Shown here: positions 11,734 to 30,277 of the stretch, one piece after another
Layout of the letters: every line of letters starts with the position of its first letter
Numbering within the stretch: position 1 is the first letter of the stretch
Notes under the pieces: model-generated
Told to the model about the DNA's origin: nothing
Seen by the model: only the letters and a program-made list of their open reading frames with translations
Database searches by the model: none
Assembly (NCBI GenBank): GCA_964420785.1
Contig: CAYQVE010000002.1
Span: forward strand, 1 to 35,189
Length of the DNA stretch: 35,189 nt
Source: an uncultured Enterobacteriaceae bacterium
GTDB lineage: Bacteria > Pseudomonadota > Gammaproteobacteria > Burkholderiales > SG8-39
Direction of reading: 5' to 3'
Translations under genes and position numbers: made by a program

Positions 11734-11757
11734 GCGGCGGCGCCTGCCATCGCCCGC

Positions 11758-12075
11758 TCAACCGCCACCGCTGTGGAACGCCGACGATGATCCAAACCCG
11801 CCGCGATTGACGGATGTGGTGCCGACCGCCCGCGAACTGCGCGCCGCATTGGAGTTCGAGCCGTAGCCCGGGCCGTACCAGACGCGTGACGCTCCCGCGG
11901 GACCCGAGCGGTATCCCGGTTCGCAGTATTCCGGACGCCCCCAGTCCTTCTGGCATTCTTCCGCACTGGCATACATGTCCCGATTGGTGTAGCGCGGTCC
12001 GCTGTCGCACGCGGACATTGCGGCCGCTCCCAGCAGGACTACGCTGACGCGCAAACTGGATTTCCGCTGACGCAT
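11758..12075 (-). CDS. DUF1190 (YgiB/YjfM-like) small lipoprotein
   Basis: ATG at 12075 gives the 105-aa MRQRKSSLRVSVVLLGAAAMSAC|DS… (lipobox-like MSAC). It has a YASAEECQKDWGRPEYCE Cys pair and a RGGFGSS…GGG tail resembling E. coli YgiB. Only the last 105 codons of the 535-aa ORF-track entry are credible. Confidence 0.75.
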   Translation of the reverse strand: MRQRKSSLRVSVVLLGAAAMSACDSGPRYTNRDMYASAEECQKDWGRPEYCEPGYRSGPAGASRVWYGPGYGSNSNAARSSRAVGTTSVNRGGFGSSSAFHSGGG

Positions 12076-12098
12076 GGGCCGACAGTATACGAGCGCTT

Positions 12099-17246: not shown

Positions 17247-17249
17247 CCG

Positions 17250-17882
17250 ATGAAAACGATCAGGATACTCGTGGCCGATGACCACGCCGTGGTGCGGCGG
17301 GGCTTGAGGCACATACTGGACACGACGCCCGATCTCGCCATCGCCGGCGAGGCCGCAAGCGGCGCGGAGGTCCTCGAGAAGCTGCAGGCCGGCGAGTTCG
17401 ACGTCCTGCTGATGGACATCACGATGCCCGCCACCAATCCTGTCGAGCTGATCGCGCGCATCAAGGCGCAGCATCCTCACGTCGCCATGCTCGTTCACAG
17501 CATGCACGCGGAGGGACCTGTCGCCTCGCGAATGCTGAAAGCGGGTGCGTCCGGCTACATCACCAAGGACAGCGAGCCCGAGCAGCTGCTTGCGGCCCTG
17601 CGAAAGGTCGCCGCGGGCGGAAGGTACATCGGTGCGGAACTCGCCGAGCAGCTCGCCTTCGGCAACAGTGCCGGCAGGCCGCTGCACGAGCTGCTCTCCG
17701 ACCGGGAGAGCCAGGTATTCTTCCTGCTCGCCTCCGGAAAGACCCTCAAGGCCATCGCGAGAGAGCTCCACCTCAGTCCGAAGACGGCGAGCACCTATAA
17801 AACGAGAATCATGCAGAAGCTCAATCTGCAATCCGACGCCGAGCTCATCCGCTACGCCCTCGCAAACCACCTGGTGAAGTAG
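17250..17882 (+). CDS. NarL/FixJ-family response regulator (REC + LuxR-type HTH)
   Basis: ATG lies 3 nt after the kinase stop. MKTIRILVADDHAVVRRGL…VLLMDITMP…GYITKD… plus HTH LSDRESQVFFLLASGKTLKAIARELHLSPKTASTYKTRIMQKL. Confidence 0.92.
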   Translation: MKTIRILVADDHAVVRRGLRHILDTTPDLAIAGEAASGAEVLEKLQAGEFDVLLMDITMPATNPVELIARIKAQHPHVAMLVHSMHAEGPVASRMLKAGASGYITKDSEPEQLLAALRKVAAGGRYIGAELAEQLAFGNSAGRPLHELLSDRESQVFFLLASGKTLKAIARELHLSPKTASTYKTRIMQKLNLQSDAELIRYALANHLVK

Positions 17883-17898
17883 CCGGGCCGCGGCCCGG
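17883..17898. repeat. Perfect 16-bp GC palindrome CCGGGCCGCGGCCCGG immediately after the regulator stop codon
   Basis: Read directly; it is its own reverse complement. No U-tract follows, so it could be a hairpin transcript-end or REP-like element, or a protein site. Confidence 0.4.
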
Positions 17899-17965
17899 GA
17901 CCCCGGGGCCCTCCCCGTTCGTGACGTTTGCCGCGCGGTTGCGGCGACATGTAGGAATTTCCCTA

Positions 17966-18016
17966 CGCGCCGGTGCGCCGATTCCCACAGGGAAGTAGGC
18001 GCGCGCTGATTTTTTT
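17966..18016 (+). terminator. Candidate nested hairpin plus T7 tract (weak intrinsic-terminator-like or regulatory structure)
   Basis: CGCGCC (17966-17971) pairs with GGCGCG (17998-18003). This encloses TTCCC-ACA-GGGAA (17982-17994). TTTTTTT at 18010-18016 starts 6 nt after the stem, which is not canonical spacing. Confidence 0.25.
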
Positions 18017-18066
18017 CTCTTTTCCCCTCGATCACAATACCCGCTCATACGAAGAGGGACGAAGCG

Positions 18067-18699
18067 ATGCCGATCACGACTTTGATTGCCGACGACCACA
18101 CGCTGGTGCGCGAGGGTCTGCGCTCGCTGCTCGCGGCGCACGCGAGCATCGACGTCGTCGGCTTTGCCGCGAACGGCCGCGAGGCGGTGCGCGAAGCGCT
18201 GCGACTGCGGCCTGAAGTCGTGCTCATGGACATCTCGATGCCCGAGCTGAACGGCATCGACGCGACCCGGCAGCTCCTCGACCGCCATCCCGCGGCCAAG
18301 GTGATCATCCTGTCCATGCACGCCACGATCGAGCACTACCACCGCGCGGTCGGCGCCGGCGCCCGGGGCTATCTGCTCAAGGAATCCGCCACCGAGGAAA
18401 TCGCCGAAGCGGTACGCACCGTGCACATCGGCCGGCAATTCCTCAGCCGCAGGATCGCTGCCAGCTTTCAGCCCCGGTCCGACACGGAGTCGCCGCTCGA
18501 CAGCCTGTCGCGGCGCGAGCGCGAGATTCTCCAGCTGGTCGCGGAGGGCCACTGCAGCGCGAAGATCGGGGCCCTCATCTGCATCTCGCCGAAGTCGGTC
18601 GACACCTACCGCAGCCGCCTGATGCAGAAACTGGGAATGCGGGGCATGCCCGACATGGTGAAATTTGCCATCCGGCACGGGCTCACTTCGCTCGAATGA
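18067..18699 (+). CDS. NarL/FixJ-family response regulator (REC + LuxR-type HTH), no adjacent kinase
   Basis: ATG 18067 follows GAGGGA. MPITTLIADDHTLVREGL…VVLMDISMPELNG…GYLLKE… plus HTH LSRREREILQLVAEGHCSAKIGALICISPKSVDTYRSRLMQKL. Confidence 0.92.
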   Translation: MPITTLIADDHTLVREGLRSLLAAHASIDVVGFAANGREAVREALRLRPEVVLMDISMPELNGIDATRQLLDRHPAAKVIILSMHATIEHYHRAVGAGARGYLLKESATEEIAEAVRTVHIGRQFLSRRIAASFQPRSDTESPLDSLSRREREILQLVAEGHCSAKIGALICISPKSVDTYRSRLMQKLGMRGMPDMVKFAIRHGLTSLE

Positions 18700-18816
18700 T
18701 CCGGGAACCTGTAACGGGCGCAGGCGGCATTCAAGGTTTCCCGACAGATCGGCCCTGTGTCCGCCGCTAAACTGCGGCGACTCTTGATTACAGACTCTCA
18801 TTCGACGAAAGAGACG

Positions 18817-19218
18817 ATGAACGGTACACCCCACCCAGCCCGACCTTCGATCCTGGTCGTCGAAGACCATCGATCCCTGCGGCTCAGCGTCGTGAACTGG
18901 CTCCAGCTCCGGTTTCCCGGAAGCTTGGTCCAGGGCGTCGAATCCGGGGAAGAGGCGCTCGCGCATGCCCGTGCCGCCTGCCCGGAGGTCGTGCTCATGG
19001 ACATCAACCTCCCGGGCATCGACGGACTCGAGGCAACCTGCCGCATGAAGGCCCAGGCGCCGAAAACAGCCGTCGTGATACTCAGCACGCACGACACTCC
19101 CCGTCACCGCCTCGCGGCCGCAAAAGCCGGCGCCGCCGGATACATCGCGAAGCGCGACATGGAAACGCTGCTCGAGGCGACTGTCGAATGCCTGCTTCAG
19201 TCGCGCCCGCGCTCATGA
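18817..19218 (+). CDS. Stand-alone receiver (CheY-like, NarL-type receiver without an output domain)
   Basis: ATG 18817 gives MNGTPHPARPSILVVEDHRSLR…VVLMDINLPGIDG…AAGYIAKRD (133 aa). The stop overlaps the next start (ATGA at 19215-19218). Confidence 0.85.
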   Translation: MNGTPHPARPSILVVEDHRSLRLSVVNWLQLRFPGSLVQGVESGEEALAHARAACPEVVLMDINLPGIDGLEATCRMKAQAPKTAVVILSTHDTPRHRLAAAKAGAAGYIAKRDMETLLEATVECLLQSRPRS

Positions 19219-21041
19219 CTCACGACGTCCTCACGATGATCAGGGTACGACCCATCTCGCTGCTGCGCTGCGTTGCGCGGCTCCTGAAGAAGATCGCTCC
19301 CGCGCACGCCGTTTCGGCAAGACCGCGCGCGAGCGCGGCGGAAATCGAGCGGGGCGAATTGCTGCGCCGCTGCTCGCTCGAGGGCCTGTGGGATTGGGAC
19401 CTCCGCAACGACAGAGTCCATTACTTTCCCCGTTTCCGCGAGCTGCTGGGGTACTCCGCGGAAGAACCCTTGAACCGGTTCCAGCTGGCCTTTCATTCAG
19501 AGGACGTCGAGCGCATGAGACAGTCGATGCGCCGCCTTTTCGAGGAACAGGTTCCGATCGACGAGGAATTCCGGTTGCGATGCAAGAACGGCAGCTTCCG
19601 CTGGTTCCGCGGGCGCGGACACGCGGTCTGGGACGCTCGCGGCAAGCCCCTGCGTTTCGCCGGATCCATCACCGACATCAGCGGCTACAAGGAGACCGAG
19701 CTGCGCCTGCTCTACCTCGCCGATCACGACGTACTGACCGGTCTGCCCAACCGGCGCCTGTTCCTTTATCGCCTGTGCCAGGGCATCTCCGGCGCGCGAG
19801 ACTCAGGCCGCTCGCTCGCGGTTCTCTTCATCGATCTGGACCGGTTCAAGCAGATCAACGACGTCCTCGGACACGACGCAGGAAACCAGGTCCTCTGCGA
19901 GGCGGCCAAGCGCATACGCGGCGCCGTGCGCGACGAAGACACAGTTTCGCGGCTCGGCGGCGACGAATTCACGGTTCTCCTGGAAGGGGTCGAGGCGGAG
20001 TCGCGCGTTTCCGCGGTCGCGGACCGGATCCGCTCGGAGCTCAATCGTCCGTTTGCACTGGCCGAGCGCGAGGTCTACATCTCCGCGAGCATCGGGATCG
20101 CCGTCTTTCCCCGCGACGGCGAGTCGGCCGAAGAGCTGCTCAAGCGCTCAGACGTGGCCATGTACCAGGCGAAAAAGCACGGCCGCGACAACCACCAGTT
20201 CTACTCCGCAGAGTCCGAGACCCGCATTTCCCGCGGGCTCGACATGGAGACCCGCCTGCGCCGTGCGCTCGAGTACGGCGAGCTCGAAGTTCACTATCAG
20301 CCGCAAGTCGGCTTCGCCAGCGGTGAGATCAATTCGGTCGAGGCGCTGCTCCGCTGGAACAACCCGGAGCTCGGCTGGGTTGCGCCGGCGCAGTTCATAC
20401 CGCTTGCCGAAGAGACCGGGCTCATTCAGCCGATCGGCGCGTGGGTCCTCGAGACCGCCTGCGCGCAGGCGAAGGCCTGGCAGGACGCCGGCCTCCGGCC
20501 CATCAGGATGTGCATCAACGTGTCCGCGCGGCAGCTCGACGCGAGGTTCGTCGAGACAGTCTCCCGGGCGCTCGCCGAGACGGCGCTTGCGCCTGCGCGC
20601 CTCGAGCTGGAAATCACCGAGGGCGTCATGGTCGGCAAGGACCCCGACACCGAGGCCGTGCTCCAGGCGATGCGGGCACTGGGCGTCGGTTTCGCCATCG
20701 ACGACTTCGGCACCGGCTATGCGACCTTCGATTATCTCAAGCGCTTCCCCGTGCACACCCTGAAACTGGACGGATCGTTCGTTCGCGGCGTTTGCGACAG
20801 CAGCAACGACGTCGCTATCGTCGATGCGACCATCGCCTTGGCGCGAAGCTTCGGCCTCAGGGTCGTTGCAGAGGGCGTAGAGACCGCCGAGCAGCATGGG
20901 CTGCTCAAGGAACTGGGCTGCGACGACTGCCAGGGCTATTACACCTTCAGGCCTCTCCCGGCCGCGGCGCTGGAAAAACTGCTGGCCCCGAAGCATCAAG
21001 TTTTCCCTACAGACCGGCAGGGGCCTGCGACTGCAGACTAG
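19215..21041 (+). CDS. PAS-GGDEF-EAL protein (putative c-di-GMP synthase/phosphodiesterase)
   Basis: PAS region (GLWDWDLRNDRVHYFPRFRELLGY…HSEDVERM…). GGDEF intact at nt 19956-19970, with an RDED I-site-like motif 5 aa upstream. EAL intact at nt 20340-20348, plus DDFGTGY and EGVETAEQ motifs. No receiver domain of its own. Confidence 0.92.
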   Translation: MTHDVLTMIRVRPISLLRCVARLLKKIAPAHAVSARPRASAAEIERGELLRRCSLEGLWDWDLRNDRVHYFPRFRELLGYSAEEPLNRFQLAFHSEDVERMRQSMRRLFEEQVPIDEEFRLRCKNGSFRWFRGRGHAVWDARGKPLRFAGSITDISGYKETELRLLYLADHDVLTGLPNRRLFLYRLCQGISGARDSGRSLAVLFIDLDRFKQINDVLGHDAGNQVLCEAAKRIRGAVRDEDTVSRLGGDEFTVLLEGVEAESRVSAVADRIRSELNRPFALAEREVYISASIGIAVFPRDGESAEELLKRSDVAMYQAKKHGRDNHQFYSAESETRISRGLDMETRLRRALEYGELEVHYQPQVGFASGEINSVEALLRWNNPELGWVAPAQFIPLAEETGLIQPIGAWVLETACAQAKAWQDAGLRPIRMCINVSARQLDARFVETVSRALAETALAPARLELEITEGVMVGKDPDTEAVLQAMRALGVGFAIDDFGTGYATFDYLKRFPVHTLKLDGSFVRGVCDSSNDVAIVDATIALARSFGLRVVAEGVETAEQHGLLKELGCDDCQGYYTFRPLPAAALEKLLAPKHQVFPTDRQGPATAD

Positions 21042-21059
21042 CTGCACCGACGGATGGCC

Positions 21060-21069
21060 CGAACGTTCG
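21060..21069. promoter_or_regulatory. Perfect 10-bp palindrome CGAACGTTCG upstream of the first chemosensory-cluster gene
   Basis: Located in the 60-nt spacer 21042-21101, 32 nt upstream of ATG 21102. Function unknown. Confidence 0.2.
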
Positions 21070-21101
21070 CAAACCACGAAAACGACGAGTCCGAGGAAAC
21101 C

Positions 21102-21857
21102 ATGAATTCAACCAGCGTTGCCGTGATCGGTTTCAGCGCCCAGGAACGAAACGTCTTGAAGGGCATATTCGATCTCACCTCGCGGCGCCCGACCTCGTTC
21201 GCCCCGTTCGATCCGGACATGGGCGAAGAGCCCGGCCTGTTCCTGGTCGACGCGAGCAGCAAGGAATTCGTGAATGAAACACTCAGCGTCGTCGTCACGC
21301 ACCCCGTTCCGGTCGTGCTGGTGGGAGACTCGAACTGCGGCACTCCCTACCCTTTCGTCAAGCGACCGATCAAATGGGTGCAGCTGCTCAAGCTCCTGGA
21401 AAACTCGGTCGCACCCGCCGCGCCGTCCCAGCCCCGGGCCCGCGAAATCGACTCCGCGCTGGTCGTGGATGACAGCCTGCCCGTGCGCAAGTTCATGGAA
21501 TTGAAGCTCGCGCCCTACTCCATCGGCGTGGACTTTGCCGAATCGGGCGAAAAGGCCATAGCTCTCGCCGCCGAGAAACACTATACCTGCGTGTTTCTCG
21601 ACGTGATGCTCCCGGGCGTGGACGGATACCAGGTCTGCAAAGCGATCAAGAAGAAGAAGCATGAAGGAAAGCCGACCGCCGTGGTCATGCTCACCGGGAA
21701 GACGTCGCCCTTCGACAAGATCCGCGGCACCATGGCCGGCTGCGACGCCTATCTGACCAAGCCGGTTGACGAGGAAAGACTGCTGGAAGTCATTTTGAAG
21801 TTCATTCCGAGGCGCGAGCGTGCCGATGCCGCCTTCGATGCAACCCAATCGACCTGA
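21102..21857 (+). CDS. PilG-like response regulator with an N-terminal pseudo-receiver extension
   Basis: ATG 21102 follows GAGGA. The C-terminal REC (res ~117-235; DD at VVDDS, acceptor FLDVMLP, TGKTSPFDKIRGTMAGCDAYLTKP) resembles P. aeruginosa PilG (SSKDGLFDKAKG…DQYLTKP). The N-terminal ~100 aa have a receiver-like beta/alpha periodicity, but GF replaces the acidic DD pair. Confidence 0.85.
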   Translation: MNSTSVAVIGFSAQERNVLKGIFDLTSRRPTSFAPFDPDMGEEPGLFLVDASSKEFVNETLSVVVTHPVPVVLVGDSNCGTPYPFVKRPIKWVQLLKLLENSVAPAAPSQPRAREIDSALVVDDSLPVRKFMELKLAPYSIGVDFAESGEKAIALAAEKHYTCVFLDVMLPGVDGYQVCKAIKKKKHEGKPTAVVMLTGKTSPFDKIRGTMAGCDAYLTKPVDEERLLEVILKFIPRRERADAAFDATQST

Positions 21858-21919
21858 TGCGCGCGGCAAATCGCGTCGACACCCGTATCGAATCAAACCT
21901 ACAGCAAAGGAGAAACAAC

Positions 21920-22282
21920 ATGGCAATTCGCAAAGTCCTGATCGCGGACGATTCATCGACCGATCTCAAGAATCTGGAGCAGATCGTCTCCGGCGCCGGC
22001 TATCACGTCATCACGGCCGCATCCGGCAAGGAAGCGCTGGCCAAGGCGAAAACCGAGCGCCCTGACGCGATACTGCTCGACGTCATCATGCCCGACATGA
22101 ACGGCTTCCAGGCGTGCCGTGCGATCACGAGCGACGCCGAGACCAGGAACATCCCGGTGATACTCGTTTCCAGCAAGGGCGAGAAAACCGACAAGGTGTG
22201 GGGTGAAGAGCAGGGTGCGAAGAGCTACGTCACCAAGCCCTACACGCCCGATCACATCCTGAGCCAGCTGCGGGCGCTCTAG
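21920..22282 (+). CDS. PilH/PixH-like single-domain response regulator (copy 1)
   Basis: ATG 21920 lies 7 nt after AAGGAG. The 120-aa protein reads MAIRKVLIADDSSTD…ILLDVIMPDMNG…VSSKGEKTDKVWGEEQGAKSYVTKP. This is the SSKGE..D..WG..QGA..Y..KP signature of PilH/PixH-type CheYs. Confidence 0.92.
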   Translation: MAIRKVLIADDSSTDLKNLEQIVSGAGYHVITAASGKEALAKAKTERPDAILLDVIMPDMNGFQACRAITSDAETRNIPVILVSSKGEKTDKVWGEEQGAKSYVTKPYTPDHILSQLRAL

Positions 22283-22327
22283 CGCGCTCCCCGAAAACAA
22301 ACGCACGTCATCGAAAAGGACAAAGCC

Positions 22328-22690
22328 ATGGCAATCCGCAAAGTACTGGTGGCCGACGATTCGACCACCGACCTCAAGAACATGGAGCACATCTGCTCCG
22401 GCGCAGGCTATCAGGTGATCACCGCCGCATCCGGCAAGGAGGCCGTGGCCAAGGTGAAGGCCGAGCGTCCGGACGCGGTGGTCCTCGACGTCATCATGCC
22501 GGAGATGAACGGCTTCCAGGCGTGCCGCGCGATCACGAGCGACGCCGACACCAAGAACATCCCGGTGATACTCGTTTCCAGCAAGGGCGAGAAAACCGAC
22601 AAGCTCTGGGGCCAGGAACAAGGCGCCCGCGGCTACGTCACCAAGCCCTTCACGTCCGACGATCTGCTCAAAGAGCTCAAAGCCCTGTAA
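22328..22690 (+). CDS. PilH/PixH-like single-domain response regulator (copy 2, tandem paralogue)
   Basis: 120 aa, about 79% identical to copy 1 by hand alignment (25 differences in 120 residues), with the same length and motifs. Confidence 0.92.
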   Translation: MAIRKVLVADDSTTDLKNMEHICSGAGYQVITAASGKEAVAKVKAERPDAVVLDVIMPEMNGFQACRAITSDADTKNIPVILVSSKGEKTDKLWGQEQGARGYVTKPFTSDDLLKELKAL

Positions 22691-22704
22691 CCGCGAGCGA
22701 GCCC

Positions 22705-23253
22705 ATGAACCTTGTCGAACCATCGCAGCCCCCGCTTTCGCCCGTCGCGGCGCTCGCCGGCGAGTTCGTGCTGCCCGAGAGCGGCGCCGCCGGGGAGTCG
22801 CGCGCGGATTCGGCGGAGCGGCTTGCATTCCGGGTCGGCCCCGTCGGGATGCTGTGCGCGTCGGACGCGGGGCGCGAAGTCGTGCTGCCGCCGCCGGTGA
22901 CGCGCCTGCCGCACCTGCCGGCGTGGATGCTCGGGGTCACCAACGTGCGAGGCACCCTGCTCCCCGTCGTCGATCTGGCCGCGGCCTACGGAGTGGAGCA
23001 CGAGACCGCGCTTCACCCCTACCTGCTTGTCATGGGCACCGCCGAGGATCCGCTCGGCCTGCTGGTGGACGGGTTGCCCGTGATCGCGCGCCTCGATGAG
23101 AAGGAAAGAATGCGCGGCGTGCCGCCGCACCCTGAGCGTCTGACCGGGCACGTCGCGGGCGGCTACGAACGCGAAGGAGTGGTGTGGCTCGACGTCAATG
23201 CGGGGTGGCTGTTCGCAACCCTGGGAAATGCATCGCAGCTCGAGCGCGAGTGA
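22705..23253 (+). CDS. CheW-like coupling protein (PilI-like)
   Basis: ATG 22705 gives a 182-aa protein with the CheW pattern …LAFRVGPVGMLCASDAGREVV…LPHLPAWMLGVTNVRGTLLPVVDLAAAYG…LLVMG…LGLLVDGLPVI…. The ORF-track N-terminal extension overlaps the preceding gene. Confidence 0.88.
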   Translation: MNLVEPSQPPLSPVAALAGEFVLPESGAAGESRADSAERLAFRVGPVGMLCASDAGREVVLPPPVTRLPHLPAWMLGVTNVRGTLLPVVDLAAAYGVEHETALHPYLLVMGTAEDPLGLLVDGLPVIARLDEKERMRGVPPHPERLTGHVAGGYEREGVVWLDVNAGWLFATLGNASQLERE

Positions 23254-23292
23254 AAGATATCTTTGGAACTGTCCTGGACTTTAATCGATTAA
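23253..23292. promoter_or_regulatory. AT-rich spacer carrying three palindromes (AAAGATATCTTT, GTCCTGGAC, TTAATCGATTAA) upstream of the MCP gene
   Basis: Perfect 12-mers at 23253-23264 and 23281-23292, and a 9-mer at 23271-23279. This is the only clearly AT-rich intergenic stretch inside the cluster. AAGGAG lies 7 nt before GTG 23311. Confidence 0.4.
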
Positions 23293-23310
23293 TCATTTAA
23301 GGAGCGAATC

Positions 23311-24873
23311 GTGTCACAACAAGGAAGCATGGCGATATTCAAGAAATTCAGCATCCGGAGTCGTCTCGCGATGATGGCGGGGCTCATGACCGTGCTGCTG
23401 CTCGGCATCGGCCTGCTCGGCTTGATCGCTCTGGGCAATTTTCAGGACCGGTCGGCAACGAACGTGGATTCGGGCGCCTTGTCGATTAAGGCGGTCGATA
23501 CCGCGAGAAGCGCTCAGGTCCATTTTAAGAAACAGGTGCAGGAGTGGAAAGACCTCTTGTTGCGTGGCTTCGAGCGCGAGAACTTCGACAAGTACCTCGC
23601 TCAATTCACCAGCGAAGAGGCGGCGGTCCAGCGGGAACTCTCAACGCTCAAGGATCTCATGAAGCGGCAGAGTCTGAGCACTGACGCCGTGGATCGCCTA
23701 CTCAATGTTCACAAGGAATTGGGCGCCAAGTATCGCGAGGCTTTGAAGAGCTACGACCAGGGGTCCCGCGTCGTGGACGGACTCGTCAAAGGAATGGACC
23801 GCGCGCCGACGGATGCCATGGATGCGGTCGTAAAGGACATCCAGGACCGGGCGAGCGCTAGCTTTACGGACATGAAGGCGCAATCGGTCGCGGAATACAG
23901 CTTTTCGAGGAACGTGATGGTTGCTATGGTCGTCGCTGCCCTTGCGCTCGGTGCTCTGCTCGCGTTTTTCACCGCGCGCCACATCACGCGCGCCGCCGGC
24001 CAGCTCGCCACCACGGTGGGCAAGGTCTCGGCCGGCGACTACGAGGCGCGCTCGAAGGTGAAGAGCGGCGACGAGCTCGAAGCCCTGAGCGCCGCTTTCG
24101 ACACCATGCTGGACGAGCGCGTCGCGACGCTGGCGAAAAAGGAAAAGGACAGCGAAGCGCTCAACAACTCGATCATCGACATCCTGCGCGCGGTCGCCAA
24201 GGCGGCGCAGGGTGACTTGACGATACAAGCCCCGGTGCGAGAGGACATCACCGGCGCGCTCTCGGACGCCATCAACTCCATGTCCAGCGCGACCGCCAAG
24301 ACGCTTGCGGGCGTGAACAACGTTTCGCACGAAGTGCGTTCCGCCTCCCAAGATGGCCGCGACACGGTGCTGCAGACCGCGCGCGGAATGAATGAAATCC
24401 GCGGTTCGATCCAGGAAACCGGCAAGCGCATCAAGCGCCTGGGAGAGCGCTCGCAGGAAATCACCGGCATCGTGAAGCTGATCGACGATATTTCGGAACG
24501 CACCTCGGTGCTCGCGCTGAACGCCAACATGCAGGCGGCCATGGCGGGCGAAGCCGGGCGCGGGTTCCGCGTGGTGGCCGACGAAGTGCAGCGCCTGGCC
24601 GAGCGCTCCAAGCAGGCGACCGACCAGATCGGCAAGCTGGTGACCACCATTCAGTCGGAGACCAACGACACCATGGCGACCATGGACCGGGCGATCGGCG
24701 AAGTGGTCAAGGGCGGCGAGCTTGCCGAAAAGGCGGCGCAACAGGTGACGCACCTGGACGAGCTCGGCGGCCAGCTGATCGAATCGATCCAGGCATTCAA
24801 GCTGCCGGCGGAACTGGTCGGCGGATCGGCCGCTGCCAAGCAGCGTGCGGGCGAAACCCGCCGGGCGGCGTAG
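23311..24873 (+). CDS. Methyl-accepting chemotaxis protein (PilJ-like position): 4-helix-bundle-type periplasmic domain, HAMP, short signalling domain
   Basis: GTG 23311 has a strong SD. TM1 (res ~20-42), a helical ~155-aa periplasmic region, TM2 (~201-221), HAMP (…[26 protein letters not shown]), a second HAMP-like GDLT segment, and the tip [38 protein letters not shown]. Confidence 0.92.
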
Positions 24874-24877
24874 GGCC

Positions 24878-27769
24878 ATGCCCCGTCTGGAAGCCCTGGC
24901 GGTCCTCGCCGACGAGGTCGGCGAGGTCGCGGACCGGATGTCGGCCGCCCTCGCCGACCTGAACGACTCCTCCAACGACGAGCGTTTGCGCGAAGCGCTC
25001 GATTTCTTCGCCGAGCAGAACGGGAGGATAGTCACCGTCACCGAGATGCTCAACCTGACGGGCTTGCGTCGGCTGTGCGCCCGAATACAGGAGAACGTCG
25101 CGCTGCTGCAGGCCGCCGGCGTCCCCCCGCGCGAGCCGCTCGCCGTGTTCCTGCGGGGTCCCAACCTGATCGTGGAGTATCTGCGCGCGCCCAAGGACCC
25201 CGCAAGCTGCGCGGCGCTCACGCAGTACCTGAGCAATCCCCTCTGGCCGCAGCCCGCCCGAGCAGCTGAAGCGGCAGAGATCCAGGCCCTGCTCGCCGAC
25301 ATCGACGAGTCGGCCTCGGAAGCCGAGCTCATGCCCGAGCGGCCCGCCGAGGCCAGCCCCGAAGACGTCGCGCTCGATGTCGCACCGGACGTGAACCCCG
25401 AGCTCCTGGAAGCATTTCTCGCCGAGGCGCCGCTGCAGGCCGGCGCATATACGAGCCTGGTGGAGCAGGTGACTTCGGGCGGCGGCGCGCCCGGCGAAAT
25501 GCTCAACGAGGCGCGGCGCATCGTCCATACGATCAAGGGCGCGGCCAACACGGTCGGCGTGCGCGGCGTGGTCACGCTGACCCATCATCTCGAAGATCTG
25601 CTCGAATATCTCGCCGAAAGCGCGCTCAGGCCGCAAGGCAGGCTCGCCAAACTCCTCATGGACGCGGCCGACTGTCTGGAGATGATGCTGGAGTCGCTCA
25701 TCGGCGCCGAAGTTCCACCCCAGCAAGCGCACTCGGTGGTGCAGCGCCTCCTCGACGCAGCCAACGCCATCGATCGCGGCGAGGATCCGGGGGCGGCAGT
25801 GGCGGAGAAACCCGATTCCGGGATCACGCCCTCGCCTGCCGGGAAAGGCGCAAAGCCCGAAGCGACGGCGCCCAAGGCGGAGCCCGCGCCCAAGGTGGAG
25901 TCCAGACCCGAAGCCCCTCCATCCAAGGAACCGGCGGCGAAAATTCGCGTCGCCGGGGCGACCATAGACGAGATGCTGCGCCTGTCGGGAGAAATGACCA
26001 TTGGCCGGGCGCACGTCCAGGAGCGCCTGCACCAGGCCACCGGTCTGGCAGCCGAGATGAGCGAGCGCCACGGCCTGCTGCAAAAGCGCGCGAGCGAGAT
26101 CGATCACATCATCACCGTGCGCGGCGTCGCCGCAGGCGAGAAGCTGGGCGCCGTCGCCCAGGCGGCCGGCACCTCGGTGTTCGACGCGCTCGAGCTCGAC
26201 CAGTACAGCGAGCTGCACGGCGCGGTGCACGGTTTCCTCGAGACCATCGCCGACTTGCAGACGCTGGAGTCGCGGCTGCTCGACACCCTGTCGGGGATCG
26301 AAACCTCTATCACCCAGGAAGGGCTCATCAACAACGAGCTGCACGAGCACGCCATGCGCGCCCGCATGGTGCCCGCCGCCAGCATCGAGCCGCGGCTCGC
26401 GCGCACCGTACGCCAGGTGTGCGAGGCCACGGGGAAAGCCGCGCGCTTCGAGCTCCGCGGCGGCGACGTGATGCTCGACGATCACGTGATCAACGACATT
26501 ATCAGTCCGCTTTCGCACCTGTTGCGCAACGCCGTTGACCATGGGATCGAGGAGCAGAAAGTGCGCGCGACGCTCGGCAAACCCGAAGCAGGCGCGATCG
26601 TGCTTTCATTCTCGCGCGAGGGCAATCATCTCGTGATCCGCTGCGAGGACGACGGCGCCGGCCTCGATTTGCGGCGCATCCACACCTCCGCCGTCGAACG
26701 CGGGATCGTGCGCGGTGATGTGAGCTTGAGCGAGTCCGAGATCGCGCAGATTATTCTTGTTCCAGGCTTCAGCACGCGCTCGACCGCCTCGGAAGTGTCC
26801 GGGCGCGGCGTCGGCATGGACGTGGTGAACGTGGCGGTGAGCAAGCTCAAGGGCACGATCGACATTTCCACCGTCCCCGGCAAAGGCTGCCGCTTCACCC
26901 TGCGGCTGCCGCTCACGCTGGGCACGGCGCACTGCCTGGTGGTGCGCGCGGGCGGCGAGATTGCCGCGATTCCGACCGACATCCTCGACCGTGCCGTTTA
27001 CCAGGGCGCGCTGAACGTCGTGCGCCTTGGCGAGCAGTATGTCTACCGCGAGGAGAACGAAAGTCTCGAGGCGCGGGACCTCGCCCATCTGCTCGGTTCC
27101 GCGGGCGAGCGCTCGCTCGGCGACGCGGAGGACAACCGCCCGGTCATCGTGGTGAACGACACCAGAGGCAAGAAGGCGGTGGTGGTGGACGCGCTGCTTT
27201 CCGGGCGCGACCTCGTGGTCAAGAGCCTTGGCCAGTACCTGGCGAGCGCCAAAGACGTCATCGGCGCCGCGGTGCTCGGCGACGGGCGCGTGCTGCCGGT
27301 GCTCGACCTGCAGGCGCTGCTGCGCGCTCAGCATGGCACCACGGCTGTCGCGCGGCCCTACCTCGTGCACAGCAGCCCTGCGGCGCGCGAGGCGCGGACC
27401 GTCGACATCCTGGTGGTGGACGATTCCCTCAGCGTGCGCCAGGCCTTGACCCTGCTCTTGAACGGCGAAGGCTATTCGGTGCACACCGCGAAGGACGGCG
27501 TCGAAGCGCTCGAACAGGTCGCCAAGAACCGGCCGGCGGCCGTGGTGGCCGATCTCGAGATGCCGCGCATGAACGGGCTCGAGCTCACCTCGCGGCTGCG
27601 CGCCGATCCGCGCACGCGCGGATTGCCGGTGATCATGGTCACCTCGCGCTCCAGCGACAAGCACCGCCAGCAGGCGCAGCTCGCGGGCGTTGATGTCTAC
27701 CTCACCAAGCCGTACCGCGACGCCGAGCTCCTGTCGAAACTGCAAGCCATGCTGAGCAAGGCGGCATAA
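24878..27769 (+). CDS. CheA-like hybrid histidine kinase (ChpA/PilL-like): His-free N-domain, one Hpt, dimerisation, HATPase, CheW-like P5, C-terminal REC
   Basis: ATG 24878 lies 4 nt after the MCP stop. Hpt motif RRIVHTIKGAANTVG (His codon 25526-25528). LLRNAVDHGIE, DDGAGLD and GRGVGMDVV boxes. P5 region (AHCLVVRAGGEIAAIPTD…VVVDALLSGRDLVVK…VLPVLDLQAL). REC (ILVVDDSLSVR…VVADLEMPRMNG…VYLTKP). Confidence 0.93.
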   Translation: MPRLEALAVLADEVGEVADRMSAALADLNDSSNDERLREALDFFAEQNGRIVTVTEMLNLTGLRRLCARIQENVALLQAAGVPPREPLAVFLRGPNLIVEYLRAPKDPASCAALTQYLSNPLWPQPARAAEAAEIQALLADIDESASEAELMPERPAEASPEDVALDVAPDVNPELLEAFLAEAPLQAGAYTSLVEQVTSGGGAPGEMLNEARRIVHTIKGAANTVGVRGVVTLTHHLEDLLEYLAESALRPQGRLAKLLMDAADCLEMMLESLIGAEVPPQQAHSVVQRLLDAANAIDRGEDPGAAVAEKPDSGITPSPAGKGAKPEATAPKAEPAPKVESRPEAPPSKEPAAKIRVAGATIDEMLRLSGEMTIGRAHVQERLHQATGLAAEMSERHGLLQKRASEIDHIITVRGVAAGEKLGAVAQAAGTSVFDALELDQYSELHGAVHGFLETIADLQTLESRLLDTLSGIETSITQEGLINNELHEHAMRARMVPAASIEPRLARTVRQVCEATGKAARFELRGGDVMLDDHVINDIISPLSHLLRNAVDHGIEEQKVRATLGKPEAGAIVLSFSREGNHLVIRCEDDGAGLDLRRIHTSAVERGIVRGDVSLSESEIAQIILVPGFSTRSTASEVSGRGVGMDVVNVAVSKLKGTIDISTVPGKGCRFTLRLPLTLGTAHCLVVRAGGEIAAIPTDILDRAVYQGALNVVRLGEQYVYREENESLEARDLAHLLGSAGERSLGDAEDNRPVIVVNDTRGKKAVVVDALLSGRDLVVKSLGQYLASAKDVIGAAVLGDGRVLPVLDLQALLRAQHGTTAVARPYLVHSSPAAREARTVDILVVDDSLSVRQALTLLLNGEGYSVHTAKDGVEALEQVAKNRPAAVVADLEMPRMNGLELTSRLRADPRTRGLPVIMVTSRSSDKHRQQAQLAGVDVYLTKPYRDAELLSKLQAMLSKAA

Positions 27770-28270
27770 ATGTCAGCGGTGCTCAAATCCGATCCCGCCT
27801 CCGTCGCGGCCCCAGTCGAAGGCTGGCTGGTGCTGGCGATGGAGGAACTGCGGCTGGCGCTGCCGCAGAGCGAAGCGCTCCAGATCGAGCTTGCTTTCGA
27901 CCTCGAGCATGTGGACGACGGAGGGCCGGAGATCGGCCAGCTCTCGCGCCGCAACGGCAAGCCCTGGCCCGCCTACTGCCTGGATTGGGCGCTTCGCGTG
28001 CGGAGCTCGACTCCGGCGGAGCGCCGCCTGTGCGTCTTTTTCGGCACGCAGGACGACGCACGCGGCATCTTGTGCGACCGGGTGTGGCCTCTTGCCGCGG
28101 ACGCGGATCTCCGCCCGGAGCCGCCGCGGAGATGCATGAGCGGCCCGCGTTCGCCGACGATCGGTTTGGCGAGATTCCAAGACGGCGTTGCGGTCGTAAC
28201 GAGTGCCGCCGAGCTGAAGGCTTATCTCGATTTTCTCGCGGAGGAAGATCATGGCAGGCGCCGCGACTAG
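27770..28270 (+). CDS. Divergent/degenerate CheW-like protein (ChpC-like position)
   Basis: ATG 27770 directly abuts the ChpA-like stop (TAAATG). GC3-rich codons in this frame. The 166-aa protein has a CheW-like spacing of hydrophobic strands (GWLVLAMEELRLALPQSEALQIE…, RLCVFFGTQDDARGILCDRVWPL, GLARFQDGVAVVTSAAELKAYL) but lacks the N(L/V)RG motif. Confidence 0.6.
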   Translation: MSAVLKSDPASVAAPVEGWLVLAMEELRLALPQSEALQIELAFDLEHVDDGGPEIGQLSRRNGKPWPAYCLDWALRVRSSTPAERRLCVFFGTQDDARGILCDRVWPLAADADLRPEPPRRCMSGPRSPTIGLARFQDGVAVVTSAAELKAYLDFLAEEDHGRRRD

Positions 28271-29504
28271 GGGCTGGGTCATGGATGTCGGCGCGGGTTG
28301 GCGCGTGGCGGTCGGCGCCCATCGGGTCGTCGAGTATCTGCTGTCGCCGCCCACTCACAGCCTGCCGCGCATGCCGGCGCATTGCCTGGGCGTCCTCATC
28401 TGGCAGGAACGGATGATACCGCTGCTCGATCTCGCCCCGGTTCTATCGGAGCGAGCTCGAGCGCAGGAGCACGGCGTGCGCCGCGCAGTGGTCCTCGCCT
28501 ACCAGGAAATGCCCGGGCAAGCCTTGCGCTACGGAGCCTTGGTGGTGCGCGCGGCGCCGGTCGAGGTCTGGGCGAGCGACGACATGGCTTGCCCGTTGCC
28601 CGAAGATCCCCCGGCGCTCAAGCATTTCAGCTGCTCCTGTTTCCTGCATCAAGAAAAAGCGATACCCATCCTGGATACGACGCGGCTCTTCGCGACGGCG
28701 CTGACTTTGGCCCCGGGGCAACGCAAGGATGAAGCTGAAGCGAACACCATCGTGGAGGCAAGCCCTCCGCCGAGGCGCTCCGCGGACTTTGAGAATACGC
28801 AACCGCTGGAGGTCGCAGCCGCGGCGCCCCTTTCTCCCGCACCACAACCGGAAACCTTCGCGGAGCCCGCCCAGTCTGCAGTCGAAGCCCCGCAGGTTTC
28901 GGCGACGCCTGCCGAGGCGAGCGTCGACCGGCGGCCGAGCGTTGAACCGCTGCCGGCGGTTTCCGCGGAAGACGTTCCTGCCGCGGAAACGCAAGACCGG
29001 AATCAAAATGCCGATCTTCCTCGCGACATCGGCCGCAAACTGTCCGCCGCGACTCGATCCTGGCTCCTCGGCGCGGCGCTCGCGGTCACACTGCTCGCCA
29101 CAGCATTGCACCCATTTTCGCCGGGTTCCCTCCGTGACGTGTCGGAACCCGCTGCTTGGACGCCGTCCGCAACAGGTCCCGCGAGCGACGCCGCGCCCCA
29201 GCGAGTCGTCGCGATCGAGTCCGAGGAGCTGACCCTGACGGTCGAACGCCTCTCCGGAGGCGACGCGCGACCGGCCTTCGCGAAACCCGCTGCGCCCGCG
29301 AGCGGCGCGCCGCCGAGACCCGTGAATCCCGACACTCGCACGCACGTCGTGGTGCGCGGCGACACGCTGTGGGACATCGCGAAGAAATATGTCGGTGATC
29401 CTTTCCGTTATCCGGAGCTGCGGGAGCTCAGCAATATCCGGAACCCCGATCTGATCCATCCGGGCGACATCGTTCGCATCGAGATTCGAGAGAATCGCAA
29501 GTAA
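28251..29504 (+). CDS. CheW-like domain / acidic Pro-Ala linker / single TM / C-terminal LysM domain fusion protein
   Basis: ATG 28251 lies 5 nt after GGAGGA and overlaps the previous gene by 20 nt. Res ~15-150 are CheW-like (VVEYLLSPPTHSLPRMPAHCLGVLIWQERMIPLLDLAPVL…YGALVVRAAPVEV…AIPILDTTRLF). Res ~150-260 are a low-complexity P/A/E linker. The TM is WLLGAALAVTLLATAL (nt ~29058-29114), with R/K on its N side. The LysM is HVVVRGDTLWDIAKKYVGDPFRYPELRELSNIRNPDLIHPGDIVRI (nt ~29343-29480). Confidence 0.85.
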   Translation: MAGAATRGWVMDVGAGWRVAVGAHRVVEYLLSPPTHSLPRMPAHCLGVLIWQERMIPLLDLAPVLSERARAQEHGVRRAVVLAYQEMPGQALRYGALVVRAAPVEVWASDDMACPLPEDPPALKHFSCSCFLHQEKAIPILDTTRLFATALTLAPGQRKDEAEANTIVEASPPPRRSADFENTQPLEVAAAAPLSPAPQPETFAEPAQSAVEAPQVSATPAEASVDRRPSVEPLPAVSAEDVPAAETQDRNQNADLPRDIGRKLSAATRSWLLGAALAVTLLATALHPFSPGSLRDVSEPAAWTPSATGPASDAAPQRVVAIESEELTLTVERLSGGDARPAFAKPAAPASGAPPRPVNPDTRTHVVVRGDTLWDIAKKYVGDPFRYPELRELSNIRNPDLIHPGDIVRIEIRENRK

Positions 29505-29528
29505 ACACAACCCAACTAAGGAGCCTTC

Positions 29529-29894
29529 ATGCCAATCAAGAAAATCCTGATCGTCGACGATTCACCGACCGACCGCCAATTCCTGCTTGAGAAGCTCTCC
29601 AAGCACGGCTACCAGTGCGTGACCGCCGAGAGCGGAGCCGAGGCGATCGCCAAGTCGAAGAGCGAGCAGCCGGACCTCATTCTAATGGACGTCGTCATGC
29701 CCGGCACGAACGGGTACGAGGCGACGCGCGCCATCGCCCGCGACGACTCGACCCGGCACATCCCGGTGATCATCTGCACCGGAAGAAAGCAGGAGACCGA
29801 CCGCCTCTGGGGCCTGCGCCAGGGCGCGATCGACTATCTGATGAAGCCGATCGACCACCACGTGCTCCTGGAGAAAATCGCGGCCTTGGCATGA
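29529..29894 (+). CDS. PilH/PixH-like single-domain response regulator (third copy, diverged)
   Basis: ATG 29529 lies 5 nt after AAGGAG. The 121-aa protein reads [19 protein letters not shown]…[13 protein letters not shown]…[25 protein letters not shown]. Confidence 0.92.
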
Positions 29895-30277
29895 CGCCCG
29901 AACCTGTCATCAACTACACGATCCGCCTGGACGGCGATCTGTTGCGGGCCCACATATGGGGCAGAGAAACCGACAATCCTCCGTCTCACATTTGCAGGGC
30001 GATCCTCCAAGAATGCCGTCGAAACGGGCTGAAGCGCATCCTGGTCGAGCTAACTCAGAGGCGGCCGCTCTCCGACGCGAGCCAGTACCTTCTGGTGGAA
30101 AGGCTGCCCGCCCTCGGGCTCACGCACGAGCACCGGATCGCTCTCGTCCATCACACGCCCGGACTCTACAAGGCGAACGACATGATCGATCTCGTCGCCG
30201 AGAATCGCGGCATCAACGTGCGCAACTTTCCCGACGTGCGCTCGGCGACCGAGTGGCTGCAGTCGCCCGCTCCCTAG
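29891..30277 (+). CDS. Hypothetical protein, possible STAS/SpoIIAA-like fold, translationally coupled to the third CheY
   Basis: ATG 29891 overlaps the CheY stop (ATGA). The 128-aa globular-looking translation (YTIRLDGDLLRAHIWGRE…LKRILVELTQRRPLS…HRIALVHHT…VRNFPDVRSATEWL) follows the pattern of SpoIIAA-like/DUF-type STAS proteins as I recall them. The fold assignment is unverified. Confidence 0.65.
   Translation: MTPEPVINYTIRLDGDLLRAHIWGRETDNPPSHICRAILQECRRNGLKRILVELTQRRPLSDASQYLLVERLPALGLTHEHRIALVHHTPGLYKANDMIDLVAENRGINVRNFPDVRSATEWLQSPAP

Follow-up and report, generated by a model that had tools for sequence, protein, structure and literature searches.

Related chemosensory systems

The Pil-Chp system of Pseudomonas aeruginosa (PilG, PilH, PilI, PilJ, PilK, ChpA, ChpB and ChpC) belongs to the Tfp class and is composed of response regulators, a CheW, an MCP, a CheA-REC hybrid kinase and a further CheW-type adaptor, with PilI and ChpC providing a precedent for two non-equivalent adaptors in one system (PMC13599512). 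The same series of parts is found in the cluster considered here, which comprises ten genes (g1–g10) in a window of 35,189 nucleotides, that is, the whole stretch of DNA analysed, from an uncultured soil betaproteobacterium represented by metagenomes only; both systems use PilG-like and PilH-like receivers and more than one non-equivalent adaptor. However, ChpA has many Hpt/Xpt domains whereas the kinase of the cluster has one Hpt, and PilJ is a 40-heptad (40H) receptor whereas the MCP of the cluster has about 24 heptads and a four-helix-bundle (4HB) sensor. The cluster also differs in having neither PilK nor ChpB and no pilus genes in view, in carrying three PilH-like proteins and an extra N-terminal receiver-like domain on its PilG-like protein, and in possessing two extra adaptors, each in a family of its own, of which one is predicted to be anchored by the membrane and by LysM.

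A second relevant system is Flm of Comamonas testosteroni (FlmE, FlmD, FlmC, FlmB and FlmA), likewise from a betaproteobacterium, which is a PilG/PilH-type pathway with neither CheR nor CheB and with an MCP devoid of methylation sites (PMC6391922). It sets a precedent for a Tfp-class system without these enzymes that controls biofilm and not detectable twitching (PMC6391922), and this likeness would extend to the cluster if the output proposed below holds. Unlike the cluster, Flm has one CheW and two receivers, its receptor is 40H, MiST HMMs assign it to Tfp (PMC6391922), and it lacks g7/g8-type adaptors and LysM. Moreover, the control of biofilm by Flm is reported to be independent of c-di-GMP (PMC8880074), which counts against a c-di-GMP output for the cluster.

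Three other systems show more partial likenesses. Wsp (ACF class, Pseudomonas) combines a CheA-REC hybrid kinase with a pair of CheW-type proteins, WspB and WspD, and has a non-motility output tied to c-di-GMP, as may also apply to the cluster; in contrast to the cluster, it has CheR and CheB (WspC and WspF), its regulators are not matched by the PilG/PilH-like ones found here, and its sole output is the REC-GGDEF fusion WspR, whereas the cluster has a separate receiver beside a PAS-GGDEF-EAL protein. In the HubP/FimV-ParC-ParP systems of Vibrio and Pseudomonas putida, a periplasmic LysM on a membrane protein is linked to the array via the CheW-like ParP, and a distant relative of the cluster (L096) encodes a ParA-like ATPase directly after its g8-like CheW. 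Nevertheless, LysM-TM (HubP/FimV), ATPase (ParC) and CheW-like (ParP) elements are three proteins there, whereas in g8 a single chain carries CheW, TM and LysM, arranged in the reverse order. [quoted passage not shown]

Organization of the cluster

The ten ORFs are all intact, all lie on the + strand and extend from 21054 to 30277, with intergenic gaps from g1 to g10 of 62, 45, 14, 57 (or 75), 4, 0, -20, 24 and -4 nt. This agrees with the ten co-directional genes spaced by -20 to +62 nt described in the first-pass annotation, unless g5 begins not at 23311 but at 23329 (gap 75), the ATG used by its orthologue; the start of g1 is also ambiguous (21054 or 21102). Every domain call made at that stage was correct, those of a degenerate CheW and a STAS-like protein among them (Pfam; Foldseek for g7 and g10), and so was the description of a two-component and GGDEF-EAL block immediately upstream (15633–21041). 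On the same strand, this block consists of a PAS-HisKA_3 kinase (Pfam) and two NarL-type RR-GerE regulators identified from their translations (15633–18699), a stand-alone receiver (RR; 18757–19218) and a PAS-GGDEF-EAL protein (19188–21041; Pfam PAS_3, GGDEF and EAL), whose start overlaps the receiver ORF by 31 nt and whose end lies 12 nt before g1.

As had also been noted, adaptation and pilus genes are not in view: a Pfam scan of the 20 likeliest flanking genes returned no CheR, CheB, CheD, CheZ or pil gene, with the high-GC3 ORFs at 7701–8147, 9147–10115 and 10123–10533 and an overlapping pair at 1233–2705 falling outside the scan or having no match. Those related loci (designated by L numbers) that have called genes likewise showed no pil gene in the 10 kb or so around the cluster.

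Receivers and sensor core

The receivers, all of them called as REC by Pfam, are distributed over g1 (21054 or 21102–21857; Pfam REC at residues 136–247), g2 (21920–22282), g3 (22328–22690), g9 (29529–29894) and the C-terminus of the kinase g6, and all five keep the DD...D...T/S...K residues in an alignment. With verified P. aeruginosa proteins as the reference, the one closest to PilH among the three PilH-like CheYs is g9 (52.5% identity), followed by g2 and g3 (45%), which are tandem duplicates with 86% nucleotide identity; the same proteins share 29–32% identity with E. coli CheY, and the JGI annotation names their orthologues PilH. The REC domain of g1 is 39.5% identical to PilG. The proposed PilG/PilH-like character of the receivers was thus upheld, as was the count of five phosphorylatable receivers. 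The additional pseudo-receiver postulated at the N-terminus of g1 is plausible rather than proven: this domain aligns over its full length with receivers but has no acidic pair, and hhalign against the REC profile gives an E value of 3e-4 with a probability of only 39%. Orthologues of g1 have 258–259 aa in L085, L086, L093 and L096, and the N-terminal domain is missing in L088.

The sensor core is of a different kind. The adaptor g4 (22705–23253) is a canonical CheW (Pfam E 2e-18) that shares 28% identity with a 178-aa CheW of P. aeruginosa, probably PilI, and 32% with E. coli CheW. The transmembrane MCP g5 (23311 or 23329–24873; Pfam TarH-like, HAMP and MCPsignal, plus TM segments) has a 4HB sensor, a HAMP and a second HAMP-like segment, as judged from Pfam, TM prediction and alignment to solved MCPs, followed by a short signalling hairpin, each arm of which has about 12 heptads (about 24 in total); a search of g5 for the methylation consensus found none. 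The kinase g6 (24878–27769; Pfam Hpt, H-kinase_dim, HATPase_c, CheW and REC) has a single Hpt with HTIKG at H217, then P3, P4, P5 and the receiver, and its core matches Thermotoga maritima CheA with an E value of 2e-62. Orthologues of CheA, MCP and CheW carry generic JGI names rather than ChpA, PilJ and PilI. By sequence comparison, therefore, the response regulators are PilG/PilH-like but the sensor core is not Pil-Chp-like, and the Pil-Chp/Tfp-like core proposed at first pass holds for the receivers only.

Pilus genes are often unlinked to pilGHIJ-chpA, and the cluster might accordingly be read as a true Pil-Chp (Tfp-class) orthologue in control of type IV pili, with pilus genes elsewhere and with its extra receivers and adaptors as lineage elaborations. 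The gene order G-H-H-I-J-A and the PilG/PilH-like receivers fit this reading, as do the presence of Tfp-class systems in all betaproteobacterial orders (PMC13599512) and the equal lack of CheR and CheB in Comamonas Flm (PMC6391922). It is nevertheless judged unlikely in view of the single Hpt, of a 4HB MCP of about 24 heptads where PilJ and FlmB are 40H (PMC6391922), of a g4 at least as distant from the probable PilI as from E. coli CheW, and of the names given to the orthologues; furthermore, betaproteobacterial Tfp systems nearly always have one adaptor (PMC13599512) as opposed to three here, and pil genes were found neither among the genes scanned in the window nor in the 10 kb or so around the cluster in related loci with called genes.

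The extra CheW adaptors

Two further adaptors are encoded directly behind the kinase. The first, g7 (27770–28270), has no Pfam match, yet its AlphaFold model (pLDDT 77) retrieves with Foldseek only CheW or CheA-P5 structures among its 18 best PDB matches (E 3e-7 to 1.5e-4), and weak Pfam CheW matches appear in five of 17 g7 homologues. A g7 profile finds 322 clusters (50% identity) at E<=1e-10, all of about 150–175 aa, and only 529 at E<=1e-3, and is therefore a distinct family rather than a generic CheW. The second, g8 (28251–29504; Pfam CheW and LysM, TM prediction), consists of a CheW domain (residues 1–165), a low-complexity linker, a TM helix at about 271–290 and a periplasmic LysM at 365–410. 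It is a mosaic: residues 262–417 are 61% identical to an orphan CheW-LysM protein (P0015) that is unrelated to the N-terminal domain of g8. Among g8 orthologues, some have no tail, some a soluble tail and some a TM without LysM. Going by these alignments, the TM-LysM tail was grafted on in a lineage-specific manner, and since LysM is missing from most orthologues, peptidoglycan anchoring cannot be essential to this type of system.

In contrast, g7 and a g8-type CheW follow CheA in all 17 related loci with a readable junction (L085, L086/L087, L088, L089, L093/L094, L095 and L096, plus the short contigs L101–L104, L106 and L107; among partial contigs, the sequences of L105 and L108 stop within g7 or shortly past it, and that of L109 starts within it). 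These loci come from beta- and gammaproteobacteria and span Burkholderiales-like and Competibacter lineages, and because both genes follow CheA wherever the junction is visible, g7 and the CheW domain of g8 can be counted as core parts. They are system-specific and strongly diverged CheW paralogues that most likely fill baseplate positions.

Alternatively, the cluster would be an auxiliary module that supplies input to, or buffers, a different chemotaxis pathway of the cell; the PilH-like CheYs would serve as phosphate sinks, g7 and g8 would join a shared array and there would be no dedicated output. Many single-domain receivers and the absence of an obvious effector domain from the cluster (Pfam) would suit such a role, as would the L097 locus, where a canonical CheA cluster is followed by g7-g9-g10. 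However, arrays are not shared between receptors that differ in heptad class (PMC13599512), and an MCP of roughly 24H would stay separate from arrays of the 36H or 40H type, and g7/g8 strictly co-occur with g6-type CheA except in the L097–L100 clade, where deletion or replacement is recent; an auxiliary role thus seems distinctly improbable.

Variable genes and losses in relatives

The region 27770–30277 had been singled out as an undescribed accessory block, but it does not behave as one unit: g7 and the CheW domain of g8 are core, whereas the TM-LysM tail, g9 and g10 vary. The CheY g9 is frequent without being universal, as it is present in L085 and L086 and missing after g8 in L089 and L096. 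The last gene, g10 (29891–30277), which overlaps g9 by 4 nt, has no Pfam match, and its AF2 model (pLDDT 92) matches SpoIIAA, RsbS, STAS and DUF3478 with Foldseek, indicating a STAS/SpoIIAA fold. It has 122 homologues in soil Burkholderiales MAGs, those at 62% identity sit in unrelated gene contexts, and it is missing from the L085 and L086 clusters; g10 is therefore probably a neighbour rather than a component of the system.

Loss of the downstream genes in relatives had been considered a possible objection to the cluster as a unit, and the pattern found was an unforeseen one. In sister strains of about 90% nucleotide identity, g1–g6 and g8 are deleted with remnants left, and g7, g9 and g10 are kept; the system is therefore dispensable. 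In one of these strains, L097, the slot is taken by a cluster of canonical type, CheY-CheY-STAS-CheA-MCP-CheW-CheR-CheD-CheB, and g7, g9 and g10 come after it; hence g7 and g9 can sit behind another kinase. These deletions, together with a shift of the locus relative to conserved neighbours, could suggest a decaying or functionally silent accessory island on its way to loss. Yet none of the ten ORFs is broken, every one of the twelve catalytic and motif residues checked is in place, GC3 is 0.74–0.88, and each of g1–g9 is under purifying selection (dN/dS 0.13–0.43) against its orthologue in the L085 cluster, which has 78% nucleotide identity and no g10, so that decay is very improbable.

Candidate output and proposed mechanism

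The PAS-GGDEF-EAL protein has intact GGDEF, RxxD I-site, EAL and DDFGTG motifs, and the 12-nt gap that separates its gene from g1 shows no terminator excess. The RR and PAS-GGDEF-EAL pair is conserved in L085 (where the RR orthologue is 59% identical), in L086 and also in the deletion strains L099 and L100, and a paralogous copy lies inside the L086 cluster. The linkage of the two-component block further upstream is partly conserved, with RR-GerE orthologues ahead of the cluster in L085, L086 and L088. In L097 the 3' end of the GGDEF-EAL gene adjoins the cluster slot, and the distant Competibacter-type cluster L093 has a GAF-PAS-GGDEF-EAL gene two genes away; the surroundings of the cluster in L088, L089, L095 and L096 show no GGDEF-EAL gene. 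As the pair persists where the kinase is deleted, it does not depend on the kinase. The stand-alone RR is a candidate partner or output receiver, and the PAS-GGDEF-EAL protein is likely to be an output or input partner. The earlier suggestion of a c-di-GMP or surface output gains support from this pair, which is adjacent, conserved in near relatives and duplicated inside one cluster, and for these reasons a c-di-GMP output is favoured, although the output itself is still deduced from gene context.

In the proposed mechanism, the membrane MCP g5, with its periplasmic 4HB sensor and its very short, methylation-site-free hairpin, would couple through the CheW g4 to the CheA-REC kinase g6, with g7 and g8 occupying baseplate positions much as ChpC does alongside PilI in Pil-Chp. 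Phosphoryl groups would pass from the kinase to the PilG-like g1, to the PilH-like g2, g3 and g9, and to the kinase's own receiver; because CheR and CheB are absent, the surplus receivers probably serve as antagonistic outputs or as sinks for phosphate. The TM helix and periplasmic LysM that g8 has gained in this strain would tether the array to peptidoglycan. The best candidate for the output is the co-transcribed RR and PAS-GGDEF-EAL pair just upstream, through which signalling would reach c-di-GMP turnover and surface behaviour. On balance, the cluster is somewhat favoured to be an intact chemosensory pathway without adaptation enzymes, of a type so far undescribed, whose output is most likely non-flagellar and may be c-di-GMP turnover.

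Organization of the chemosensory cluster

Ten genes (g1 to g10) lie in the same direction on the + strand within positions 21054-30277, and ORFs and translations bear out the spacing of -20 to +62 nt given by the first-pass annotation; the largest gap becomes +75 nt if g5 begins at the ATG used by its orthologue. Pfam assigns REC domains to g1, g2, g3 and g9, a CheW domain (67 bits) to g4, and a TarH-like sensor, HAMP and MCPsignal domain (104 bits) to g5, the methyl-accepting chemotaxis protein (MCP). The g6 product, a CheA, carries Hpt, HATPase_c and CheW domains above cut-off, a REC domain, and an H-kinase_dim match of 20.2 bits, which is below cut-off; g8 combines CheW and LysM with a single transmembrane (TM) helix. 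Two proteins that Pfam misses, g7 and g10, had been read as a degenerate CheW and a STAS-like protein, and AF2 models compared by Foldseek show both readings to be right. Alignment places the phospho-acceptor residues in all five receivers proposed to be phosphorylatable, and the four CheW-type domains counted earlier correspond to three adaptors plus the P5 domain of CheA. The finding is therefore real: an intact MCP-CheW-CheA-REC core is accompanied by PilG/PilH-type receivers and two private CheW paralogues.

Neither CheR, CheB, CheD, CheZ nor pil genes were detected with Pfam among the genes scanned in the 35-kb window, so that the reported absence of adaptation enzymes and pilus genes holds for these genes; likewise, those related loci for which genes were called show no pil gene up to ~10 kb from the cluster. 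All cluster ORFs in the window are intact, and dN/dS ranges from 0.13 to 0.43 for g1-g9 when compared with the near relative L085. The g2 and g3 genes form a tandem duplicate (window 21919-22218 and 22327-22626) with 86% nucleotide identity and a spacing of 408 nt, both copies being present in L085, L086 and L088, and a single CheY gene being found in the distant L093 and L096. The window has a G+C content of ~65% and many TctC-family receptors in its flanks. Outside metagenome assemblies, exact copies of the cluster proteins are known from a single 95-kb NCBI MAG contig. This distribution, and the Betaproteobacteria or Burkholderiales labels of the MAGs with g10 homologues, mark the host as an uncultured betaproteobacterium of soil, probably a member of Burkholderiales. 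NCBIfam gives no family-specific names for the cluster proteins, and a promoter and terminator scan returned nothing exceeding shuffled expectation.

Tfp-like regulators and a different sensor core

The receivers were compared with the PilG and PilH sequences of Pseudomonas aeruginosa, confirmed by exact look-up, and with E. coli CheY. The closest to PilH is g9 (52.5% identity, against 32.2% to PilG and 28.9% to CheY), followed by g2 (44.8%, 36.5% and 29.2%) and g3 (44.8%, 39.1% and 31.6%), while the REC domain of g1 is nearest to PilG (39.5%, with 36.3% to PilH and 28.1% to CheY). PilG-type and PilH-type receivers precede CheW, MCP and CheA, and the three CheY orthologues in L085 bear the JGI name PilH; on these grounds, the regulators and gene order are Tfp-like. 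When the receivers and g1 were compared with PDB sequences, only generic receivers matched, and no PilG or PilH structure was among them. The N-terminal ~115 aa of g1, annotated as a pseudo-receiver, do align in register with receivers and lack the acidic pair, but the hhalign match (E 3e-4, probability 39%) makes this a weakly supported assignment. An alternative identity as a PATAN domain, known from cyanobacterial PatA/PixG, was dropped, given that no Pfam match appears at E≤10 and the segment aligns to receivers instead.

The sensor core is a complete one: CheA with Hpt, dimerisation, ATPase and P5 domains, an MCP with a hairpin tip, and a CheW adaptor. The CheA has an HTIKG histidine motif at residue 217, its P3-P5 region matches Thermotoga maritima CheA (E 2e-62), and the 19-residue tip motif of g5 aligns without gaps to solved MCPs. 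Nevertheless, the original assignment to the Pil-Chp/Tfp class, which fits the regulators and gene order, does not appear to extend to this core. In its 963 aa, g6 contains a single Hpt domain rather than the multiple Hpt/Xpt domains of the ChpA type, and relaxing the threshold to E≤10 for the first 341 aa reveals no other. The sensor of g5 is TarH/4HB-like and a second HAMP-like segment precedes the hairpin, whose tip at residue 414 and helix end at ~497 yield ~12 heptads per arm, that is, a ~24H-type receptor by our own estimate rather than by HMM assignment; the PilJ receptor and FlmB, the MCP of the Comamonas Flm pathway, are of the 40H type (PMC6391922). The g4 adaptor is not nearer to PilI, as it scores 48 bits against E. 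coli CheW and 43 bits against a 178-aa CheW of P. aeruginosa, probably PilI itself. Together with the generic JGI names of the CheA, CheW and MCP orthologues in L085, these scores are proxies that point away from Tfp for the three proteins.

Betaproteobacterial Tfp systems almost always have one adaptor (PMC13599512), in contrast to the three adaptors plus P5 of this cluster. When compared with ACF/Wsp-like systems, a CheA-REC is present and a REC-GGDEF fusion is absent, with an adjacent, conserved pair of receiver and PAS-GGDEF-EAL genes. The picture suggested by these comparisons is one of Tfp-type regulators placed on an ACF-like CheA-REC core. In tblastn searches against plasmids, the best match of CheA was a response-regulator/CheA-like gene of Sinorhizobium meliloti pSymA with 32% identity, g1 retrieved generic receivers only, and g7 had no match.

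A conserved adaptor pair

The g7 protein has no match to the CheW family PF01584 even at E≤5, and five of its 17 homologues match weakly (best E 0.0023). However, its AF2 model (pLDDT 77) is predicted to adopt the two-subdomain β-barrel CheW fold, the top 18 Foldseek PDB matches all being CheW or CheA P5 (probability 1.00, TM 0.5-0.6). A g7 profile retrieves 322 clusters (50% identity) at E≤1e-10 but only 529 at E≤1e-3 among 1.84 billion representatives, which argues for a separate family and not generic CheW; the matches listed measure ~110-290 aa, mostly 150-175. Loci carrying g7 were sought with the closer of two alignments (A2), which led to 13 metagenome loci, the remote one (A4) being too diverse for a pattern scan.

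The 681-kb contig L085 (78% nucleotide identity) holds genes for RR-GerE, RR and PAS-GGDEF-EAL followed by g1-g9 in the same order, with 57-88% amino-acid identity, but its g8 has a TM helix and no LysM domain, and g10 is absent. The same arrangement is seen in L086, also with 78% nucleotide identity, except that its g8 is a soluble protein of 152 aa and a second RR and GGDEF-EAL pair lies between g8 and g9. In L088 and L089, of the same clade and with a g7 48-53% identical, CheA is followed by g7 and then by a CheW that measures 207-214 aa. The order RR (258 aa), CheY, CheW, MCP, CheA (1326 aa), g7 and a g8-like gene characterizes the Competibacter-type locus L093, where a solute-binding-protein gene sits between CheW and MCP. 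Two further loci are more distant: L096 shares this skeleton, its CheA being 1273 aa long and its g8 being followed by a ParA-like gene, and L095 has CheA, g7 and a g8-like gene.

Thus, g7 and the CheW domain of g8 belong to the core of a recurrent system type, in which the TM-LysM tail, g9 and g10 are variable. The proposal that the downstream half of the cluster constitutes one unit does not survive this comparison, and the novelty should be sought not in "four accessory genes" but in the g7/g8 adaptors, which are conserved as a pair, in the grafted LysM domain and in a locus that behaves as a cassette. By analogy with ChpC, for which a place beside PilI offers a precedent for adaptors at the baseplate (PMC13599512), g7 and g8 may occupy baseplate positions beside g4.

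Probable exclusion of g10 from the system

As an integral component of the system, g10 (29891-30277) was rejected, since 62%-identical homologues occur among unrelated genes and it is missing from both L085 and L086. Its AF2 model (pLDDT 92) has a STAS fold, with SpoIIAA, STAS, RsbS and DUF3478 as the top Foldseek matches (E 2e-4 to 1e-2), while Pfam gives no STAS sequence match at E≤10. The homologues come from MAGs labelled Betaproteobacteria or Burkholderiales. Within the family, Leu60 is invariant and Ser61 is conserved in >90% of members. Both residues cap the N-terminal end of helix 62-71, a position that may correspond to the phospho-serine site of SpoIIAA-type STAS proteins. No partner kinase or phosphatase is encoded nearby.

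The LysM tail of g8

The LysM domain of g8 is above the Pfam cut-off (37.2 bits; cut-off 20.9), and the single TM helix (~271-290) has Arg and Lys on its N-terminal side, a topology from which the LysM domain is predicted to be periplasmic. Residues 262-417 are 61% identical to the tail of an orphan CheW-LysM protein, P0015, while the CheW domains of the two proteins are unrelated; g8 is thus a mosaic.

Stand-alone CheW-linker-TM-LysM proteins of 440-770 aa are found in at least 35 GTDB species (loci L003-L047; for instance L031:8027-10171 and L014:421-1983), with hosts among Ectothiorhodospiraceae, Chromatiales, Thiohalophilus, Desulfobacterales and others, and with no che genes up to 10 kb away. 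The orphan gene is part of the conserved housekeeping locus lptD-surA-pdxA-ksgA-[X]-apaG-apaH in 10-12 of the loci from gammaproteobacteria. The P0015 gene itself (542 aa), from another Burkholderiales-like MAG, is followed 18 nt on by a GGDEF-EAL gene (L083:10001-13666 and L084), which echoes the c-di-GMP linkage; in other taxa, such proximity is seen in only two of the 35 loci. These orphan proteins came to light in a contig scan with the CheW-LysM alignment, which used LysM peptide patterns only; as no che cluster accompanied any of its 80 loci, the scan is uninformative on synteny. Literature searches confined to open-access papers brought up nothing specific on a CheW-LysM protein or this cluster type.

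By analogy with the HubP/FimV-ParC-ParP route, the LysM tail would tie the array to peptidoglycan; that route consists of three proteins, whereas g8 joins CheW, TM helix and LysM in one polypeptide. If g8 does tether arrays in this manner, the occurrence of the same architecture in stand-alone genes of at least 35 species would suggest a general, unstudied way to position or gate arrays.

Deletion and exchange in sister strains

Four sister-strain contigs (L097-L100) have ~90% nucleotide identity to the window and are collinear with it except for gaps in the core. Positions 20991-27747, comprising g1-g6, are missing in L099 and L100, and positions 28260-29482, comprising g8, in all four. At the L099 and L100 junctions, the last ~20 nt of g6 are kept, at a short AAACTGC microhomology; the g8 junction of L100 retains the first 9 and the last ~22 nt of that gene, with the same breakpoint in L097-L099. 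These remnants imply deletions from a full cluster, and the opposite possibility, an insertion of g1-g6 into the window strain, is rejected by the g6 remnants in L099 and L100 and by both g8 ends in L100.

In L097 (480-9999), the slot corresponding to 21031-27767 of the window is filled by a canonical set of CheY, CheY, STAS, CheA, MCP, CheW, CheR, CheD and CheB, while the genes behind it, g7', g9, g10 and FmdA, are unchanged. Here, one chemosensory cassette has been swapped for another, with the junctions fixed. Taken with the deletions, this shows the core behaving as a dispensable, exchangeable cassette, in a slot bordered by the GGDEF-EAL gene and g7.

A block encoding an epimerase, a glyoxalase, TctC, a Crp-like cNMP-binding regulator, SGL, DHDPS and PrpD lies upstream of the cluster in the window (2638-14098) and directly downstream of it in L085 (11479-20869) and L086, so that, with respect to these neighbours, the entire regulator-plus-che block has moved.

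Output of the pathway

Of the neighbours of the cluster, the receiver and PAS-GGDEF-EAL pair (18757-19218 and 19188-21041) is the most consistent. It ends 12 nt upstream of g1 with intact GGDEF, I-site and EAL motifs; near relatives keep it, L086 has a duplicate of it, and the surroundings of the Competibacter-type cluster echo it. On the basis of this adjacency, the motifs and the conservation, the output is best guessed, if tentatively, to be c-di-GMP turnover. Against it, the GGDEF-EAL linkage is not universal (L088, L089, L095 and L096), the pair outlives the kinase deletion in sister strains, and the Comamonas Flm pathway is reported to act independently of c-di-GMP (PMC8880074).

The second pair in L086 (11063-12753), which lacks PAS, shares 70-73% nucleotide identity with window positions 18841-20983. 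At L086:1-56, upstream of the regulators, a gene running off the locus is called as a protein of 1532 aa in which several PAS domains are joined to ILVD_EDD (dehydratase) and SBP_bac_3; it is either an unusual fusion or an artefact of gene calling.

The g5 MCP has no methylation consensus, and without a methylation system the extra receivers might act as sinks or antagonistic outputs. The most far-reaching reading would make g8 a peptidoglycan-tethered baseplate adaptor, replacing the HubP/FimV-ParC-ParP route or letting the state of the wall influence the kinase, and g7/g8 the mark of a new class in which Tfp-type regulators are combined with an ACF-type kinase and a split receiver/GGDEF-EAL output conveys the signal to c-di-GMP; as a whole, this combination is rather unlikely.

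Implications

Chemosensory systems comprise 19 classes, and few of the non-flagellar ones have been studied. The signature described here, namely a PilG-like double receiver, one or more PilH-like CheYs, CheW, MCP, CheA-REC and two private CheW paralogues, defines a type that recurs in beta- and gammaproteobacteria and appears undescribed. Function is inferred throughout, and the host is uncultured. The mixture of Tfp and ACF hallmarks could blur the boundary between these classes or be that of a class of its own, and a LysM-anchored CheW offers a simple, testable hypothesis for how arrays may be fixed to the envelope. With a full cluster, a clean deletion and a canonical che replacement at the same junction, the sister strains provide a natural experiment, and the series shows gain, loss and exchange of chemosensory modules within a species-level population.
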